Of a stretch of 64,000 bases of DNA, positions 32,221 to 43,256 are shown in pieces (the first letter of the stretch is position 1; each line of letters starts with the position of its first letter). Under the pieces are notes generated by a model that saw only the letters and a program-made list of their open reading frames with translations, was not told the origin of the DNA and did no database searches. Origin of the DNA: Escherichia phage vB_Eco_OMNI12; the sequence record OL362041.1, one strand, 5' to 3'. The position numbers and the translations under genes were made by a program.

Positions 32221-33903
32221 TTAAACCATTACAGTAAACCGACCAACTTTCTTCATTTGAAGATGCTGACCATATGCTTGTGGGTCATGGTCTCTATGCG
32301 AAATAACAAAAACGTTAGTATTTTTTAAACTATCTAAAATAGTTGAAATAGCTTTTACACCTTCAACATCAGTTGCTGAATCAAAAACTTCATCAAGAAT
32401 TAGTGTGTTTATTTTAACACCTGAAACTTTTTCAGCAATATCACGCCAAGTAAATAAAAGCGCAATATCAATTCGTGCTTTTTCACCTTGACTAAATGAA
32501 GCATAACTAAAATCTTCACGACCACGGGATTTAATTGTCTCATTAAATTCTTCATCTAATGTAAACACATAATCCGCTTCCATTATTTTAAGATAATGGT
32601 TAATCTGCTTATTAAATAATGGAATGTACTTTTTAATAATAGCACCTTTAATACCAGAATCTTTGAGCATGTCAGTCAAAATTCCTCTGTGGTATTTTTC
32701 CATTACTAAATTAGTTTTTGTCTTAACAATTTTATCAAGTTCTTCTTGAAGCAGTGCTATTTCATCAGCATGGTCAATAAACTCAGATGATGCTTTTTCT
32801 ATAGCCGCTTTAACTTTTTTAGCTTTATCTACCGTCGTGATTAAGGATTGCTTTTTATTGCGAATATCATTCGCCAACGTCTGCTGGGTTTTAATATTAT
32901 CTCGGTATTCATCAACAAGAACTTTTAAATTATCACGATGTGTTGAAAGCTGTTCAAACGAATGCGTGCATTCAGAAACTTTATCTTTAATTTTAGAAAC
33001 AACTTTATCACCGGAACTTAATTGTGACAAACAGGTTGGACATAATCCACCTTCGTGATACATATTAATGACTTTATTATACGAGTCAATTTTTGATTTA
33101 ATTAAAAATGCTTCTTGACCGATTTTATTAAATGCATCAGTTGGGTCTTCATCCAAAACAATATTAACTAATCTTTCGTTAGCTTCTTCTATTTCCGATT
33201 TTAGCGTTCTAGCTTCTTTTGCCAAATCATCATACATATTTTGTAGACGAGTAAGGTTGTCACCCGTTAATTTTTTCTGGCGTTCAACGTTATCATTATA
33301 TATTTTAATTTGTTGGATAATACTATCTTTTTTAACATCAAGCACTTGGTTTTGTGAATTTAATTCACGTATTAGTGCTTTATTAAGCTTATCCATTTCA
33401 GCTAATGTTCCTACCTCAAGCAGGTCTTCCACAAGCTTTCTTCGCGCCGGGGTCGACAAACCCATGAAAGGGGTATACCCTGCTGTACCAAGGACAACAA
33501 TCTGCTTGAAACTGGCATATGACATTCCGATAAGCTGTTCAAATTCTGCTTGGAAATCTTTACTGCTGGCAGATTCATTAAGACGTGTACCGTTAACGGT
33601 GATTTCGAAAACGTTTGGTTTTTGTCCTCTTTTGATATAGTACTTTTTCTCATCATATTCCATCCACAGTTCAACTAAAAGTTCTTTCTTATTTGTGCTG
33701 TTTATTAATTGACCTTTCTTTACATCACGAAATGGCTTGCCAAAAAGCCCAAATGTGATGGCTTCTAACATAGTAGACTTACCACCGCCATTTCGTCCAG
33801 TAATAAGAGTTTTTTGAACCTTATCTAATTGAATGTCAACTCCATTTTGACCAACTGACATTATATTTTTATATTTTACTCTATTAAGTTTAAATGATTT
33901 CAT
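32221..33903 (-). CDS. 46: Recombination nuclease subunit gp46 (SbcC/Rad50-like ATPase)
   Basis: 560 aa; Walker A GRNGGGKST, coiled-coil middle with CPTC zinc hook, Walker B LILDEVFD. Confidence 0.9.
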   Translation of the reverse strand: MKSFKLNRVKYKNIMSVGQNGVDIQLDKVQKTLITGRNGGGKSTMLEAITFGLFGKPFRDVKKGQLINSTNKKELLVELWMEYDEKKYYIKRGQKPNVFEITVNGTRLNESASSKDFQAEFEQLIGMSYASFKQIVVLGTAGYTPFMGLSTPARRKLVEDLLEVGTLAEMDKLNKALIRELNSQNQVLDVKKDSIIQQIKIYNDNVERQKKLTGDNLTRLQNMYDDLAKEARTLKSEIEEANERLVNIVLDEDPTDAFNKIGQEAFLIKSKIDSYNKVINMYHEGGLCPTCLSQLSSGDKVVSKIKDKVSECTHSFEQLSTHRDNLKVLVDEYRDNIKTQQTLANDIRNKKQSLITTVDKAKKVKAAIEKASSEFIDHADEIALLQEELDKIVKTKTNLVMEKYHRGILTDMLKDSGIKGAIIKKYIPLFNKQINHYLKIMEADYVFTLDEEFNETIKSRGREDFSYASFSQGEKARIDIALLFTWRDIAEKVSGVKINTLILDEVFDSATDVEGVKAISTILDSLKNTNVFVISHRDHDPQAYGQHLQMKKVGRFTVMV

Positions 33904-33918
33904 TTTGTATCCAATTGT

Positions 33919-34773
33919 TCACAATGAAGAAAATTCTTTAACTAAAGCCTGTAATGAAGCCTCTATTGGATATCCATTCTTAACTAACATTTTCCTAAAC
34001 ATTACATGTTTAGGACGATTATATGATATCCACAATTCATACAATTTATCTTTATTATCCCAATGATAGCCTTTTCGTCGAGATGCTATATGAGCTTTTC
34101 TAATCTCCGGATTTTTCCAACTAGCAGCTACTGAATTTGATATAGCTATTTTATATTCAGGTTTTGATAAAGCAGCACGAACAGCCTTTTGGTGTTTAAT
34201 TTTATTTTCTTCGTTATTAAACCATTCCCTTGAAGCCATTGAAATTTTTTGTTTTGTTTTAAAATTATTTAATCTTTCTTTATTATCTTTCCTATTTTTT
34301 GCTACTGAAAAATATTTTAATGCCCTTTCTCTAGCAGCATTTCTATTTTGCGGATTTGAATAATACTGTTGAAGCCTTTTTGATATTGTGTCACTTACAT
34401 CTTGTTTTATAAAACTATATTCAGCAGCTATTAAATCAACTTCGGCTAAAGATAAATTTTTATATGTTTTTCCTGACATCATTCTGTTTAAAGCATTTAA
34501 CATTTTTCCATTTTTACCTTTTGCTAATAAGAAGTGTGCTTTAAAATGATTAAAATGACTTAAATTAACTAAATTCCATGTAGATTTTAAATATTCAGGA
34601 AATATTGATTTAGGAAGCACGTGGTGTGCTTCCGTTTTACCTGGAGTTTTAACAGTTGAATTCACAGAAATAAAATTAATGTAAGACTTGGCGTCTTCTT
34701 CACTCAACGCTAATTTTTCAACTAATTCCTTTATTAAAAATTCATCATTAATGTCAAGTTTAAAATTCTTCAC
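33919..34773 (-). CDS. Free-standing HNH homing endonuclease (Mob-like, 284 aa)
   Basis: HNH motif TEAHHVLPKSIFPEY...WNLVNLS...H shared with the mobD-like ORF at 42417; GTG start overlapping the upstream stop. Confidence 0.75.
   Translation of the reverse strand: MKNFKLDINDEFLIKELVEKLALSEEDAKSYINFISVNSTVKTPGKTEAHHVLPKSIFPEYLKSTWNLVNLSHFNHFKAHFLLAKGKNGKMLNALNRMMSGKTYKNLSLAEVDLIAAEYSFIKQDVSDTISKRLQQYYSNPQNRNAARERALKYFSVAKNRKDNKERLNNFKTKQKISMASREWFNNEENKIKHQKAVRAALSKPEYKIAISNSVAASWKNPEIRKAHIASRRKGYHWDNKDKLYELWISYNRPKHVMFRKMLVKNGYPIEASLQALVKEFSSL
33919..34773 (-). mobile_element. Homing endonuclease gene inserted between 46.1-like ORF and gene 46
   Basis: HNH ORF at a position that holds only small ORFs in the T4 arrangement. 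Confidence 0.55.
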
Positions 34774-35033
34774 AAAAGATTCCTTTTAATGTATCTTTTA
34801 GACCATTCTATCATATCATCATAATCTAAAAAGTATTCATCAAATTCAGCCATGCAAACAACACCTTGTGCTGCTTTTGATGTGATATAAATTATTCCAA
34901 CATATCTAGAATCTTCTTCGGTGTATTCAATATTTGCTATGAATTCATCGTTAATGTCAAATGTCGAAAACTTCACAGTATGCATCCTTAATACAAGATA
35001 CGGCCATATCTCGCAATGATTTAGGTGTGTCAT
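34770..35033 (-). CDS. Hypothetical small protein (46.1 position)
   Basis: ORF; internal segment resembles the N-terminus of the downstream HNH protein; start uncertain. Confidence 0.4.
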   Translation of the reverse strand: MTHLNHCEIWPYLVLRMHTVKFSTFDINDEFIANIEYTEEDSRYVGIIYITSKAAQGVVCMAEFDEYFLDYDDMIEWSKRYIKRNLL

Positions 35034-35220
35034 TATCTAAAATGTTGAAGTTAAAAGATACAGCCCAATCTGTACAGACCGTAACTTTTTTAATACAATT
35101 ATCTTCAACCTCTAGCGGTTCAAACCAATATTCAATAATTTCTTTATGCCCAATATCATCTTTTACTTCACATTCAAAATGCTGACTCATCATAACATTT
35201 TTAAATTCATCAAAAGTCAT
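34957..35220 (-). CDS. Hypothetical small protein (46.2 position)
   Basis: ORF overlapping gene 47 start and the next ORF in another frame. Confidence 0.4.
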   Translation of the reverse strand: MTFDEFKNVMMSQHFECEVKDDIGHKEIIEYWFEPLEVEDNCIKKVTVCTDWAVSFNFNILDNDTPKSLRDMAVSCIKDAYCEVFDI

Positions 35221-36236
35221 TGTGTTGCCTCTACATATAACTGATTTGCATATTGAATAAGTGCTTCACGGTCAGAATCAGTGATGTCTGGAATTGCATT
35301 AATGTATTCTTCCATCAACGTCTGAAGAGATTGAACTTCAACTTCTTCACTGTCATCTGACTCGACAGAGTTATCAATCTTTGACACAACTCGTAATGAA
35401 TGCACAACTTTTTCTAGTTCAGATTCGAACTTCGTTAGATTTTTGTCTACTTCAGTTACTATAACACGTACTGATAGATTTGTAAAATCTTTATAGTCAA
35501 TTTTTCCTTTAAATGGATAATGAATTCTACGATGCCAGGTAGTGTTGTTTGGAATAAATTCCATTCGTTCTGTTTCTGTATCAAACATCCAGAACCCACG
35601 AGGGTCATTCTCGTCACCTGCAGTTAGTGTCCATGGTGTCCCAATATATCTGACGTTAGCAGCCTCAGAGATAGTATGGAAGTGACCAGACCACACCTCT
35701 TTATAAGTCTTAAGGAAATCAGGTTCAAGACCGTGAGATTTCATTCCTTTATAAAAATAAAATCCATTCAGTTCCCAGTGACCGACGCAAAAAGAAGCAG
35801 ATGAAGTTTTGATGTGCTCAAGAATTTCACCAGTATTTTCTTCACACATCCAAGGAATTAAATCAATTAAACATCCGTCAAAATCTACTGTAGTAGGCTT
35901 ATCATATACTTTAACATTAGGATATTTAGCCAAAAGCTCAGTAGAGGCATTTGGAGTTAAAGTATTTTTAAAGTGCATATCATGGTTTCCTACAACAGTA
36001 TGTAGGGTAATACCATCATCATCAAGCATTTGAACTATTTCACGAGCGAACTCCATAGTTTTATGCGTGATTGCTTTTCGCACATCAAAAATATCGCCGT
36101 ATTGAATCCATGTAGTAATTCCATTTTTCTTAGAATATTCTATTGCTTGTTTAATTCCATCCAACTGAATGGATTGAACCCACTCATCATCGGCTTTAAC
36201 GCCTAAATGCCAATCACCTAAATTTAAAATTTTCAT
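35217..36236 (-). CDS. 47: Recombination nuclease subunit gp47 (Mre11-like phosphoesterase)
   Basis: 339 aa as T4 gp47; metallophosphatase motifs (GDWHLG, GNHD). Confidence 0.9.
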   Translation of the reverse strand: MKILNLGDWHLGVKADDEWVQSIQLDGIKQAIEYSKKNGITTWIQYGDIFDVRKAITHKTMEFAREIVQMLDDDGITLHTVVGNHDMHFKNTLTPNASTELLAKYPNVKVYDKPTTVDFDGCLIDLIPWMCEENTGEILEHIKTSSASFCVGHWELNGFYFYKGMKSHGLEPDFLKTYKEVWSGHFHTISEAANVRYIGTPWTLTAGDENDPRGFWMFDTETERMEFIPNNTTWHRRIHYPFKGKIDYKDFTNLSVRVIVTEVDKNLTKFESELEKVVHSLRVVSKIDNSVESDDSEEVEVQSLQTLMEEYINAIPDITDSDREALIQYANQLYVEATQ

Positions 36237-41956: not shown

Positions 41957-42427
41957 TTAATCATGTTTCCACACCCCATCGGTATTTGACCAAAGCCGCT
42001 GATTATCTGATCCTCTCCACAGCTTTTTGGTCGGAAGATTTTTCTCATACTTCCCATCAATAATAACATCAACATATTTAAGCATTTCTAGTTGTTTAAT
42101 ATCTTCAAACTTATATCCTGTCCACAACCAAATGCTTTTATTTGGATAAAGATTTTTTACTGTTTGAACAATGCAATGAATAACATCTCGATTATCAGGA
42201 TAGAGAGGGTCTCCTCCAGTTATAGTTAATCCTTCTATATAATCATTATTCAAACATTCAATTAATTGTTCTAGTGTTTCACCAGTGAATGGAATACCAT
42301 TTCTAGCATTCCATGTTGATTTATTATAACACCCTTCGCATTTATGCAAACAACCTGTAACGAAAAGAACGGTCCTGCATCCAGGACCATTCACAAAGCA
42401 GCACGGGTATATTCTGTCATAATTCAT
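41957..42427 (-). CDS. nrdG: Anaerobic ribonucleotide reductase activating protein NrdG (radical SAM)
   Basis: 156 aa; CxxxCxxC-type cluster GCLHKCEGCYN. Confidence 0.9.
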   Translation of the reverse strand: MNYDRIYPCCFVNGPGCRTVLFVTGCLHKCEGCYNKSTWNARNGIPFTGETLEQLIECLNNDYIEGLTITGGDPLYPDNRDVIHCIVQTVKNLYPNKSIWLWTGYKFEDIKQLEMLKYVDVIIDGKYEKNLPTKKLWRGSDNQRLWSNTDGVWKHD

Positions 42428-43256
42428 TTATATATTTCCAATTATAGCCTTCAACACTTTTACGTTCGCCATTTAAACATTTTAAAATATTTCCTTTGCT
42501 AGAAATATTAAAATATTTTGCTGCGTCTGGTATATAATTAAATGTTTTTAAAAGAACACCATCTTTATATGCGCCAAATAAATTAAGAGTATATTTTTCT
42601 CGAAGACGCTGATGTTTCCTTTTCATAACCTCAGGATTTGCATACGCCAACCTCAATGAATTTCTATGTTTTTCTTTTACTTCAGGTTTTTGCATTGCTA
42701 ACTTAGTTAGCCTGGAAATTTTATTTCTAACTTCGTCAGTTTTCATTGCATTTGACAAATTTAATAAAGTTTTATTTCTAACTTCAGGTTTTTGCATTGC
42801 TAACTTAGTTAGTTCTCTATGTCTTTTTCTAAAATCGTCATCCTTCCATATATTTTTCGATAATTTTGACATAGAGCGGTGAAATAATTCCTTTTCACTG
42901 GAATACAATTTAAAAATTTCATCCAATTCATCCGCATTAAATCTATCGGTATTCGAGTTTATCATTCTATGAAAGGCATAACACATTTTACTATTGCTTG
43001 TTTTAGCTAAATAGTAATGAGCTAACGCATGGTCATAATATGACAAATTAACAATATTCCATTTATCTGTTTTATATTCAGGAAATATAGATTTGGGAAG
43101 CACGTGATGTGCTTCCGTTTTTCCTTTTATTTTAGGATTATTATAATTTTTTGTTATCAAATCAACATATGACAATAGTAAATCATTATTTTCTTCAAAT
43201 ATTAAAGCTAATTTATCATTCACAAAATCGCAAGGATAAAATCTATCATAATTCAT
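42417..43256 (-). CDS. MobD-like HNH homing endonuclease (279 aa)
   Basis: HNH motif KTEAHHVLPKSIFPEY...WNIVNLS...H; between nrdD and nrdG as T4 mobD. Confidence 0.75.
   Translation of the reverse strand: MNYDRFYPCDFVNDKLALIFEENNDLLLSYVDLITKNYNNPKIKGKTEAHHVLPKSIFPEYKTDKWNIVNLSYYDHALAHYYLAKTSNSKMCYAFHRMINSNTDRFNADELDEIFKLYSSEKELFHRSMSKLSKNIWKDDDFRKRHRELTKLAMQKPEVRNKTLLNLSNAMKTDEVRNKISRLTKLAMQKPEVKEKHRNSLRLAYANPEVMKRKHQRLREKYTLNLFGAYKDGVLLKTFNYIPDAAKYFNISSKGNILKCLNGERKSVEGYNWKYINEL
42417..43256 (-). mobile_element. Free-standing homing endonuclease gene between nrdD and nrdG
   Basis: HNH ORF; its first 13 codons near-duplicate those of nrdG. Confidence 0.55.

Follow-up and report, generated by a model that had tools for sequence, protein, structure and literature searches.

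A putative Mob-type homing endonuclease gene fused in frame to the start of gene 46 in Escherichia phage vB_Eco_OMNI12

Among the homing endonucleases described for T-even phages, the free-standing MobE (T4 nrdA/nrdB) and Seg enzymes act by intronless homing: a conserved essential gene is broken in its allele without the endonuclease, and repair copies the endonuclease gene together with flanking markers (co-conversion; PMC2988022, PMC2790892); the same mechanism is proposed below for the element studied here. The MobA element carries a recoded 'homR' replacement of the topoisomerase segment which it displaced (bioRxiv 10.1101/2022.08.31.505936). The activity of MobC was listed as not determined in a 2010 review (PMC2988022). 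A mobile element of this well-known, ordinary kind was analyzed in Escherichia phage vB_Eco_OMNI12 (sequence record OL362041.1), using a stretch of 64,000 nucleotides (nt) which is called the window in the following. The element contains an intact open reading frame (ORF) for a protein of 284 amino acids (aa), situated between the small gene 46.1 and gene 46. Its RefSeq label is already 'homing endonuclease'. Beyond this database annotation are the in-frame capture of the start of gene 46 along with a recoded spare 5' end, and an N-terminus with two sources.

T4 lacks the endonuclease gene, and the pairwise comparison of T4 with the window gave a clean indel of 870 bp. This bears out an earlier reading of the window, made from the letters without database searches (the sequence-only reading), which had noticed an extra homing-endonuclease gene relative to T4. 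The junctions were placed in an alignment of 13 genomes, seven endonuclease-positive and six endonuclease-negative; they are identical in the seven endonuclease-positive Tequatroviruses, and the site is uninterrupted in the other six. Owing to a direct repeat flanking the insert (TTTAAACTT), the boundaries are ambiguous by 9 nt. Gene 46 of T4 starts with GTGAAGAATTTTAAACTT-AATAGAGTA (MKNFKL-NRV), with its GTG overlapping the stop codon of 46.1. In the window, GTGAAGAATTTTAAACTT forms the first six codons of the endonuclease gene. The element sits inside gene 46, directly after codon 6, and the endonuclease ORF is in frame with the original Shine-Dalgarno sequence of gene 46 (AAGGA, 7 nt upstream of the endonuclease GTG), its GTG and its first six codons. 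The overlap of this GTG with the stop codon upstream, already seen in the sequence-only reading, is confirmed (GTG and the TGA of 46.1 merge as GTGA); it is inherited with the captured start of gene 46, which has it in T4. The capture of the first codons themselves had been missed in that reading and was revealed by the alignment with T4.

At its 3' end, the insert reads TGA-ACAATTGGATACAAA-ATGAAATCATTTAAACTT, whereupon gene 46 resumes with AATAGAGTA. The 15-nt spacer and the recoded ATG with its six codons (MKSFKL) rebuild a complete gene 46, and the Mosigvirus AV109 has ATGAAATCATTTAAA, a part of this replacement region, without any difference at its own gene 46 start. The N-termini to be expected are MKNFKLDINDEF for the endonuclease (GTG at 34773) and MKSFKLNRV for gp46 (ATG at 33903). 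The non-coding part of the insert is limited to the 15 nt of the spacer, no intron was matched by Rfam in the region at E ≤ 1, and gene 46 is a complete ORF without splicing; the element does not belong to the class of endonucleases encoded in group I introns. Initiation of gene 46 is altered by the element from a coupled GTG to a free ATG with a weaker Shine-Dalgarno sequence. As a separate observation, the stop region of the endonuclease gene (TTGTGAACAATT, 33910-33924) resembles the 46.1-stop/46-start of T4 (TTGTGAAGAATT) with 11/12 matches. This resemblance, of weak statistical support, might mean that the cassette contains another, decayed remnant of the gene 46 start, which would be the third.

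Scans for regulatory signals gave little. The number of σ70-like sites (13) corresponded to the expectation from shuffled sequences (9.8), the T4 late motif TATAAATA was not found in the scan, and the predicted RNA folds of the three initiation regions were unremarkable. The sequence TGCTT at 34174, the only loose match to a MotA box in the insert, was considered as a middle promoter and rejected, since it fails the stricter pattern.

The N-terminus of the endonuclease consists of six codons from gene 46, followed by six from 46.1, before the endonuclease proper begins. The second part is recognizable from a block of 19 nt which matches 46.1 at 18/19 positions in the window and at 19/19 in T4, PP01, T6, G2133 and RB51, the 46.1 copy of the window having a private synonymous change (AAT>AAC). 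This change was also considered as an immunity allele and rejected, since it is private to the window and other endonuclease-positive phages have AAT. Both copies of the block begin 16 nt from their own GTG. When the codons of 46.1 were shuffled, a 19-nt match was reached in 0/2000 cases, the longest being 16 nt. The sequence-only reading had described a resemblance over about 40 N-terminal residues to an internal stretch of the upstream ORF. Of this, the DNA block stands; the remainder (SEEDAKSY and TEEDSRY) was rejected, because after removal of residues 1-12, 346/2000 shuffles scored equally well. Nor is the stretch internal, as it corresponds to codons 6-12 of 46.1 counted from the GTG at 34976.

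The N-terminal pattern F.I.D.[FWY]..N[IV]E[WY] of 46.1 is kept in genomes without the endonuclease gene in Mosigvirus, Kanagawavirus, Dhakavirus, Gelderlandvirus and Gaprivervirus. The respective 46.1 N-termini read HEFSIGDGYIGIVEW in AV109, HDFHIGDGWFGN[IV]EW in Q7622 and WG01, HEFNLGNGWYGNIEY in S16, FEFNLGDEFVANIDY in TH40 and STFDINDEFIANIEY in T4. Because the pattern is native to 46.1 in endonuclease-less genomes, the block was copied from 46.1 into the endonuclease gene and not in the reverse direction.

Concerning the identity of the endonuclease, the 284-aa protein matched PHROG 655 ('homing endonuclease') with an E-value of 7.8e-45 and was 100% identical to the protein cluster P0001 (85 members). 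In tblastn searches, it had 36% identity with mobC (E 1e-22 to 1e-26; 1e-26 for the mobC of the window) and 30% with mobD (E 2e-11). The sequence-only reading had called it paralogous to a mobD-like ORF of the window; a paralogue is indeed present, but this ORF is mobC, not mobD, because it lies between nrdD and nrdG. In the alignment of endonuclease homologues, H50, H51, N67, H76 and H80 are invariant (columns HH..N..H..H). These columns, PHROG 655 and the homology to MobC and MobD are the basis of the HNH label, whereas an HNH domain was not recognized in the protein by Pfam, NCBIfam, a PDB sequence search or fold searches. In the AlphaFold 2 model, residues 1-5 are of low confidence, residues 1-9 have no secondary structure and helix 1 starts at residue 10. 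The protein is homologous in sequence to named Mob proteins, its gene is a stand-alone, co-oriented ORF which is either present or cleanly absent among close relatives, and footprints of homing were found in the form of apparent co-conversion tracts in the flank and of decayed copies. Judged by these sequence features, the 284-aa protein, so far uncharacterised, probably belongs to the Mob family, the free-standing homing endonucleases of phages. A homologue search with the protein returned only six proteins, all either the same element or MobC-like. A search for related loci in IMG/VR gave distant matches only (31-44% identity), which are uninformative on the 47-46 locus. In the literature covered, which excludes the work of Sandegren et al. 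2005 on mobC/segH, no published account of an endonuclease at 46.1/46 and no description of the start capture or of the two-source N-terminus were found.

Two further observations concern Mob-like genes. A perfect palindrome with a 9-bp stem (34613-34633; GGAAGCACG TGG TGTGCTTCC on the plus strand) lies exactly over the catalytic TEAHHVLP codons and was flagged on the antisense strand by the terminator scan. Another Mob-like endonuclease (30% identity) is encoded directly after gene 56 (dCTPase) in Pu-Krd-SF3 (1201-2037) and Phi_KR8 (1501-1941), where its ATG overlaps the last codons of gene 56; the copy of the Klebsiella phage is truncated to 146 aa.

The endonuclease gene is present in 71 of the 518 Tequatrovirus records among the matching phage records, including T2, T6, RB51 and RB68. 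The element is not a peculiarity of the window genome, since these phages contain the same gene with the same duplicated block; the sequence-only reading had asked whether reference T-even genomes carry the gene with no duplicated segment, and the gene is there, yet so is the block. Copies of the endonuclease gene with apparent frameshifts occur in T2, RB51/RB68, G2133 and CF-SP2. The region aligns one base shorter in RB51/RB68 than in the window, suggesting a frameshift; the one product seen for RB68 is a 'homing endonuclease' of 208 aa (P0002), which corresponds to 62% of the query. Such copies fit the usual cycle of invasion and decay. Annotation of the region is uneven: it is without annotation in RB51 and split into two ORFs in T2 and G2133, and in many database records the endonuclease is labelled 'hypothetical' or left unannotated.

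The flanking gene 46 sequence was examined for traces of homing. Among endonuclease-less Tequatroviruses, the first ~66 nt of gene 46 occur as two alleles which differ sharply. The majority (approximately 350 endonuclease-less records) have the RB27-type allele (RYQNIMSVGGNPI), which resembles Mosigvirus; a minority (approximately 70-85 endonuclease-less records) have the T4-type allele (KYKNIMSVGQNGI), which is the endonuclease-linked one. All seven endonuclease-positive Tequatroviruses sampled have a single 5' allele, namely the T4-type with V22. Codons 11-22 encode YQNIMSVGG[NS]PI in endonuclease-less genomes of three genera, and the endonuclease-linked alleles encode Y[KS]NIMSVGQ, the patch reading KYKNIMSVGQN in the T4-type (codons 7-22 correspond to positions 33838-33885 of the window). 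The only differences which separate all sampled endonuclease-positive from all endonuclease-negative genomes are at 33840-33841 and lead to V22 versus I22 in gp46; 33840 is a fixed difference, and at 33841 no base is common to the two groups.

In the endonuclease-positive Gelderlandvirus Melville, the first ~60 nt of gene 46 matched endonuclease-less relatives at 15-20/30 positions and the T4-type at 23-27/30. In the Mosigvirus AV113, nt 31-60 matched endonuclease-less relatives at 21/30 and the endonuclease-linked allele at 28/30. Beyond 60 nt, gene 46 of both phages returned to 28-30/30 identity with their own genus. These foreign tracts (Melville 1219-1280, AV113 1991-2050) look like co-conversion tracts from inter-genus transfer. 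We infer that the enzyme recognizes the RB27-type sequence within the first ~70 nt of gene 46, and the gene 46 alleles may mark the target of the enzyme and its immunity allele.

Taken together, the 870-bp insert is interpreted as a free-standing Mob-family homing-endonuclease cassette which entered the essential gene 46 at its 5' end, which obtained its mosaic N-terminus by a fusion to 46.1 and a subsequent crossover, and which now spreads by homing; we assign this interpretation a probability of roughly 0.7. An ancestral endonuclease gene would have been fused to the first ~12 codons of 46.1, replacing the rest of that gene. Since 46.1 and 46 have similar initiation regions (AAGGA, a distance of 7-8 nt, GTGAAG and a T-rich stretch), a rare crossover between these would then have put the endonuclease downstream of an intact 46.1. 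The product of such a crossover would be the mosaic N-terminus, in which the 19-mer is the scar of the earlier 46.1 fusion. Further spread would follow ordinary homing, with a cut within the first ~70 nt of gene 46 in endonuclease-less alleles and a repair which copies the cassette plus flanking gene 46 sequence. The two-source N-terminus is plausibly the trace of such a hop, in which the element left the start of 46.1 for that of 46.

Both proposed steps have a counterpart in related phages. In AV113, the endonuclease has ATGACGAAGACTGATTATGAAA (MTKTDYE) in common with 46.1 of AV109, a relative lacking the endonuclease, and stands in place of the remainder of 46.1; this is an in-frame capture of the 46.1 start (seven codons). 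The Gelderlandvirus STML-198, a Salmonella phage (380-420, compared with S16), has an exact deletion of 46.1, by which the stop of gene 47 and the former 46.1 GTG come to lie directly before codons of gene 46 (GTGAAAACATTTAAG); therefore, crossovers between the 46.1 and 46 starts occur in nature.

Several points weigh against this interpretation. The postulated intermediate, i.e. 46.1 codons 1-12 followed by the endonuclease, was not found in INPHARED phages using a chimeric megablast query, in which every full-coverage match listed was the known two-piece arrangement, nor in IMG/VR and JGI metagenomes using exact patterns. The 19-mer and the captured 18-mer are 100% identical to their sources while the endonuclease body has only 42-43% identity with its nearest relatives, which could indicate ongoing short-patch conversion instead of an old scar. 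The endonuclease-less T4-type phages share the gene 46 5' allele of the endonuclease-positive phages; they may represent either the pre-insertion or a post-loss state, and either allele could be the cleavable one. Membership in the HNH fold was not confirmed by Pfam, NCBIfam or structure search. Finally, no published work on the 284-aa protein was found in the literature covered.

A live alternative, although an unlikely one, is an ectopic gene conversion after the insertion. The endonuclease gene would have entered gene 46 behind codon 6, with an N-terminus of its own, and would never have been fused to 46.1; later, 46.1 would have donated a short patch over a distance of 203 bp, with the similar GTGAAG/T-rich starts as the seed. 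The two copies of the block do agree in orientation and register at this distance, the block matches the 46.1 allele of Tequatrovirus at 100% in an endonuclease body which is deeply diverged, and no fused intermediate was found in the phage, IMG/VR and JGI searches. However, the seed homology is very short (GTGAAG and scattered T's), the patch ends exactly at the junction to the captured gene 46 codons, as predicted by a single crossover, and the Mosigvirus homologue shows that a fusion to the 46.1 start exists within the endonuclease lineage. More improbable still is that the 19-mer was kept as a functional cis element, either as an operator or decoy like the recognition site for autoregulation (cf. 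I-TevI) or as a shared translational control at both GTGs. Precedent comes from the I-TevI operator, which shares 15/20 nt with the homing site of the enzyme (PMC2988022); both copies of the block are equidistant from a GTG start, and TTGACATT also occurs at codons 22-24 of gene 46, adjoining the discriminating differences at 33840/33841. Synonymous drift in both copies (AAC in 46.1 of the window, GAT or GAC in the endonuclease genes of T2 and Pu-Krd) speaks against such a function, as do the RNA folds of both initiation regions, with z-scores of only -1.0 to -1.7, and the gene 46 site, which matches at only 11/20 nt.

That 46.1 itself is the decayed remnant of an older endonuclease copy, i.e. 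the degenerate second HNH gene for which the sequence-only reading had suggested to search, is very improbable. BLASTP aligned the 46.1 and endonuclease proteins with 14/39 identities, and endonuclease genes at the 47-46 locus do decay by frameshift; however, the similarity past residue 12 is not significant, 46.1 has no HNH motif, and it belongs to a conserved family of 68-80 aa proteins (DUF5487) found in 713 phage records and in several genera without the endonuclease, where the N-terminal motif is kept. As judged from this conservation, 46.1 does not appear to be a decayed endonuclease gene, and a degenerate second copy was not detected. The least credible explanations are a chance similarity or an intron-borne endonuclease with a spliced gene 46. 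The region is AT-rich, and T4 has three group I introns encoding endonucleases (PMC2988022), but neither the shuffling result and the common register of the copies nor the lack of an Rfam intron, the mere 15 nt of non-coding DNA and a gene 46 ORF rebuilt without splicing agree with these explanations.

The order of the genes is 47, 46.2, 46.1, the 284-aa ORF and 46, which is the T-even order, and all of them are on the minus strand (Table 1). The region is 98-99% identical to other Tequatroviruses (UPWr_E4, PP01, T6, RB51). For the 46.1 ORF, the Pfam match reached 160.7 bits compared with a gathering cutoff of 27 and covered ORF residues 20-85. Because the Pfam alignment begins at ORF residue 20 and the annotations of T4, PP01 and T6 agree, the start of 46.1 was set to the GTG at 34976, which has an AAGGA 8 nt upstream. 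With this start, 46.2 and 46.1 overlap by 20 nt, exactly as annotated in the same three phages. An overlap of about 77 nt and, on its account, unsettled gene boundaries had been claimed for the two small ORFs; the former is an artefact of choosing the longest ORF, and homology and annotation together fix the latter. Public records frequently start gene 46 at an internal ATG (M15) and not at the GTG overlapping the 46.1 stop (RB27, RB7, PYPS2T, teqhad, AugustSocin). Separately, 46.1 of the Gaprivervirus TH40 (2015-2233) is almost the same as that of Tequatrovirus over its 3' two-thirds but has a diverged 5' end, and its neighbours 46 and 47 are diverged too, indicating a small mosaic patch shared between genera.

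Table 1. Coordinates of the features at the gene 46 locus and at the mobC/nrdG locus of the window.
Feature	Position	Strand	Evidence or remark
Gene 47	35217-36236	minus	
Gene 46.2 (T4_Y03C family)	34957-35220	minus	Pfam PF25721, E 2.6e-43; annotations
Gene 46.1 (DUF5487), 68 aa	34770-34976	minus	Pfam PF17589, E 9.4e-48; annotations of PP01, T4, T6
Source copy of the block in 46.1, TTGACATTAACGATGAATT	34942-34960	minus	46.1 codons 6-12 (FDINDEF)
Endonuclease gene, Mob-type (HNH-motif), free-standing, 284 aa, GTG start, intact ORF	33919-34773	minus	ORF list; PHROG 655
Captured original 5' end of gene 46, GTGAAGAATTTTAAACTT	34756-34773	minus	Endonuclease codons 1-6 (MKNFKL); identical to the T4 gene 46 start
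19-nt block in the endonuclease gene, TTGACATTAATGATGAATT	34739-34757	minus	Endonuclease codons 6-12 (LDINDEF)
870-bp insert relative to T4-type genomes	33886-34755	minus	Pairwise alignment with T4; 13-genome alignment
9-nt direct repeat TTTAAACTT, left copy	34756-34764	minus	
9-nt direct repeat TTTAAACTT, right copy	33886-33894	minus	
New initiation region of gene 46 with its codons 1-6, ACAATTGGATACAAA ATGAAATCATTTAAACTT (MKSFKL)	33886-33918	minus	Insert-borne
Gene 46 (Rad50/SbcC-like recombination nuclease subunit)	32221-33903	minus	Invaded host gene
Gene 46 codons 21-22 (GGAGTT)	33838-33843	minus	Hold the positions discriminating endonuclease-positive from -negative genomes
mobC	42417-43256	minus	Paralogue with the same anatomy
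nrdG	41957-42427	minus	Begins with a recoded copy of the nrdG start of mobC-less phages

The anatomy of the gene 46 locus is repeated at mobC within the same window. In the mobC-less phage KFS-EC3, nrdG starts with ATGAATTATGATAGATTTTATCCTTGCGATTTTGTGAATGG, and exactly the same 40 nt open mobC in the window. There, nrdG starts with the recoded copy MNYDRIYPCCFVNG, in which 36/45 of the first nt are identical. The mobC insert has 829 bp, is flanked by TTTGTGAATG and occurs in 21/792 matching phage records. Together with the homR of MobA, mobC/nrdG suggests that the design recurs in the Mob family. A generalization is possible but tentative, and we consider it doubtful at present: Mob-family cassettes might as a rule be 'start-swap' modules, which are fused in frame to the ribosome binding site and first codons of the invaded gene, hijack its translational coupling and bring along a recoded 5' end which is probably immune to cleavage. 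The mosaic N-terminus would then be the trace of a hop between neighbouring gene starts, and the captured block, kept 100% identical, could additionally be an operator or decoy site.

Genes 46 and 47 code for the Mre11-Rad50 nuclease of the phage; recombination-dependent replication requires this enzyme, and so does the break repair used by homing. It can be read from the locus how a homing endonuclease of the free-standing kind is able to reside inside a coding sequence without intron or intein, via capture of the first codons and a spare copy, and the locus suggests a route by which such elements may move between adjacent genes. A hop by start-swap, if true, would be a simple way for homing endonucleases to switch targets. 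If the recurrence of the design is confirmed, targets and immunity alleles of uncharacterised phage endonucleases could be found by comparing the first codons of an endonuclease with those of the next gene downstream.

Among known systems, the endonucleases of Mosigvirus (AV113, G2469) and Gelderlandvirus (Melville, CF-SP2, SEA1) are alike in sequence (42-43% identity over almost the full length from residue ~16-24), in location at the 47-46 locus immediately upstream of gene 46, in their presence/absence polymorphism and in the ~60-nt foreign tracts in gene 46. They differ in replacing 46.1 rather than following it, in 3' ends which overlap the gene 46 start by 14 nt, and in having no 46.1-derived block inside a gene 46-derived start; AV113 captures seven codons of 46.1, and Melville shares the position of the start codon only. 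With MobE and the Seg enzymes, the element has in common the proposed mechanism and a start overlapping the upstream stop codon (PMC2988022, PMC2790892). Those genes are, however, intergenic, a fusion to the first codons of the target is not reported for them in the same two publications, and their cleavage is demonstrated, whereas that by the endonuclease at gene 46 is predicted.

Of the named paralogues, MobC comes closest (36% identity, E 1e-26). Both are oriented as the host genes, have no promoter of their own and a start overlapping the upstream stop codon; in both, the first codons of the invaded gene have become the beginning of the endonuclease ORF, and a recoded copy of them, located where the insert ends on the 3' side, restores that gene; and both are polymorphic, with presence in a minority of genomes. 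The target of MobC is nrdG and not gene 46, and its 13 captured codons come from one gene, whereas the element at gene 46 has two sources (six codons of gene 46 and six of 46.1). MobA of T4 (gene 39/60) is likewise a Mob-family HNH cassette within a coding sequence, in which a recoded copy of the target keeps the host protein functional. There, the host gene is split into two ORFs with terminal extensions and a translational bypass cassette; at gene 46, in contrast, the host gene is in one piece, only six codons are duplicated, and it is the endonuclease which holds the original start.

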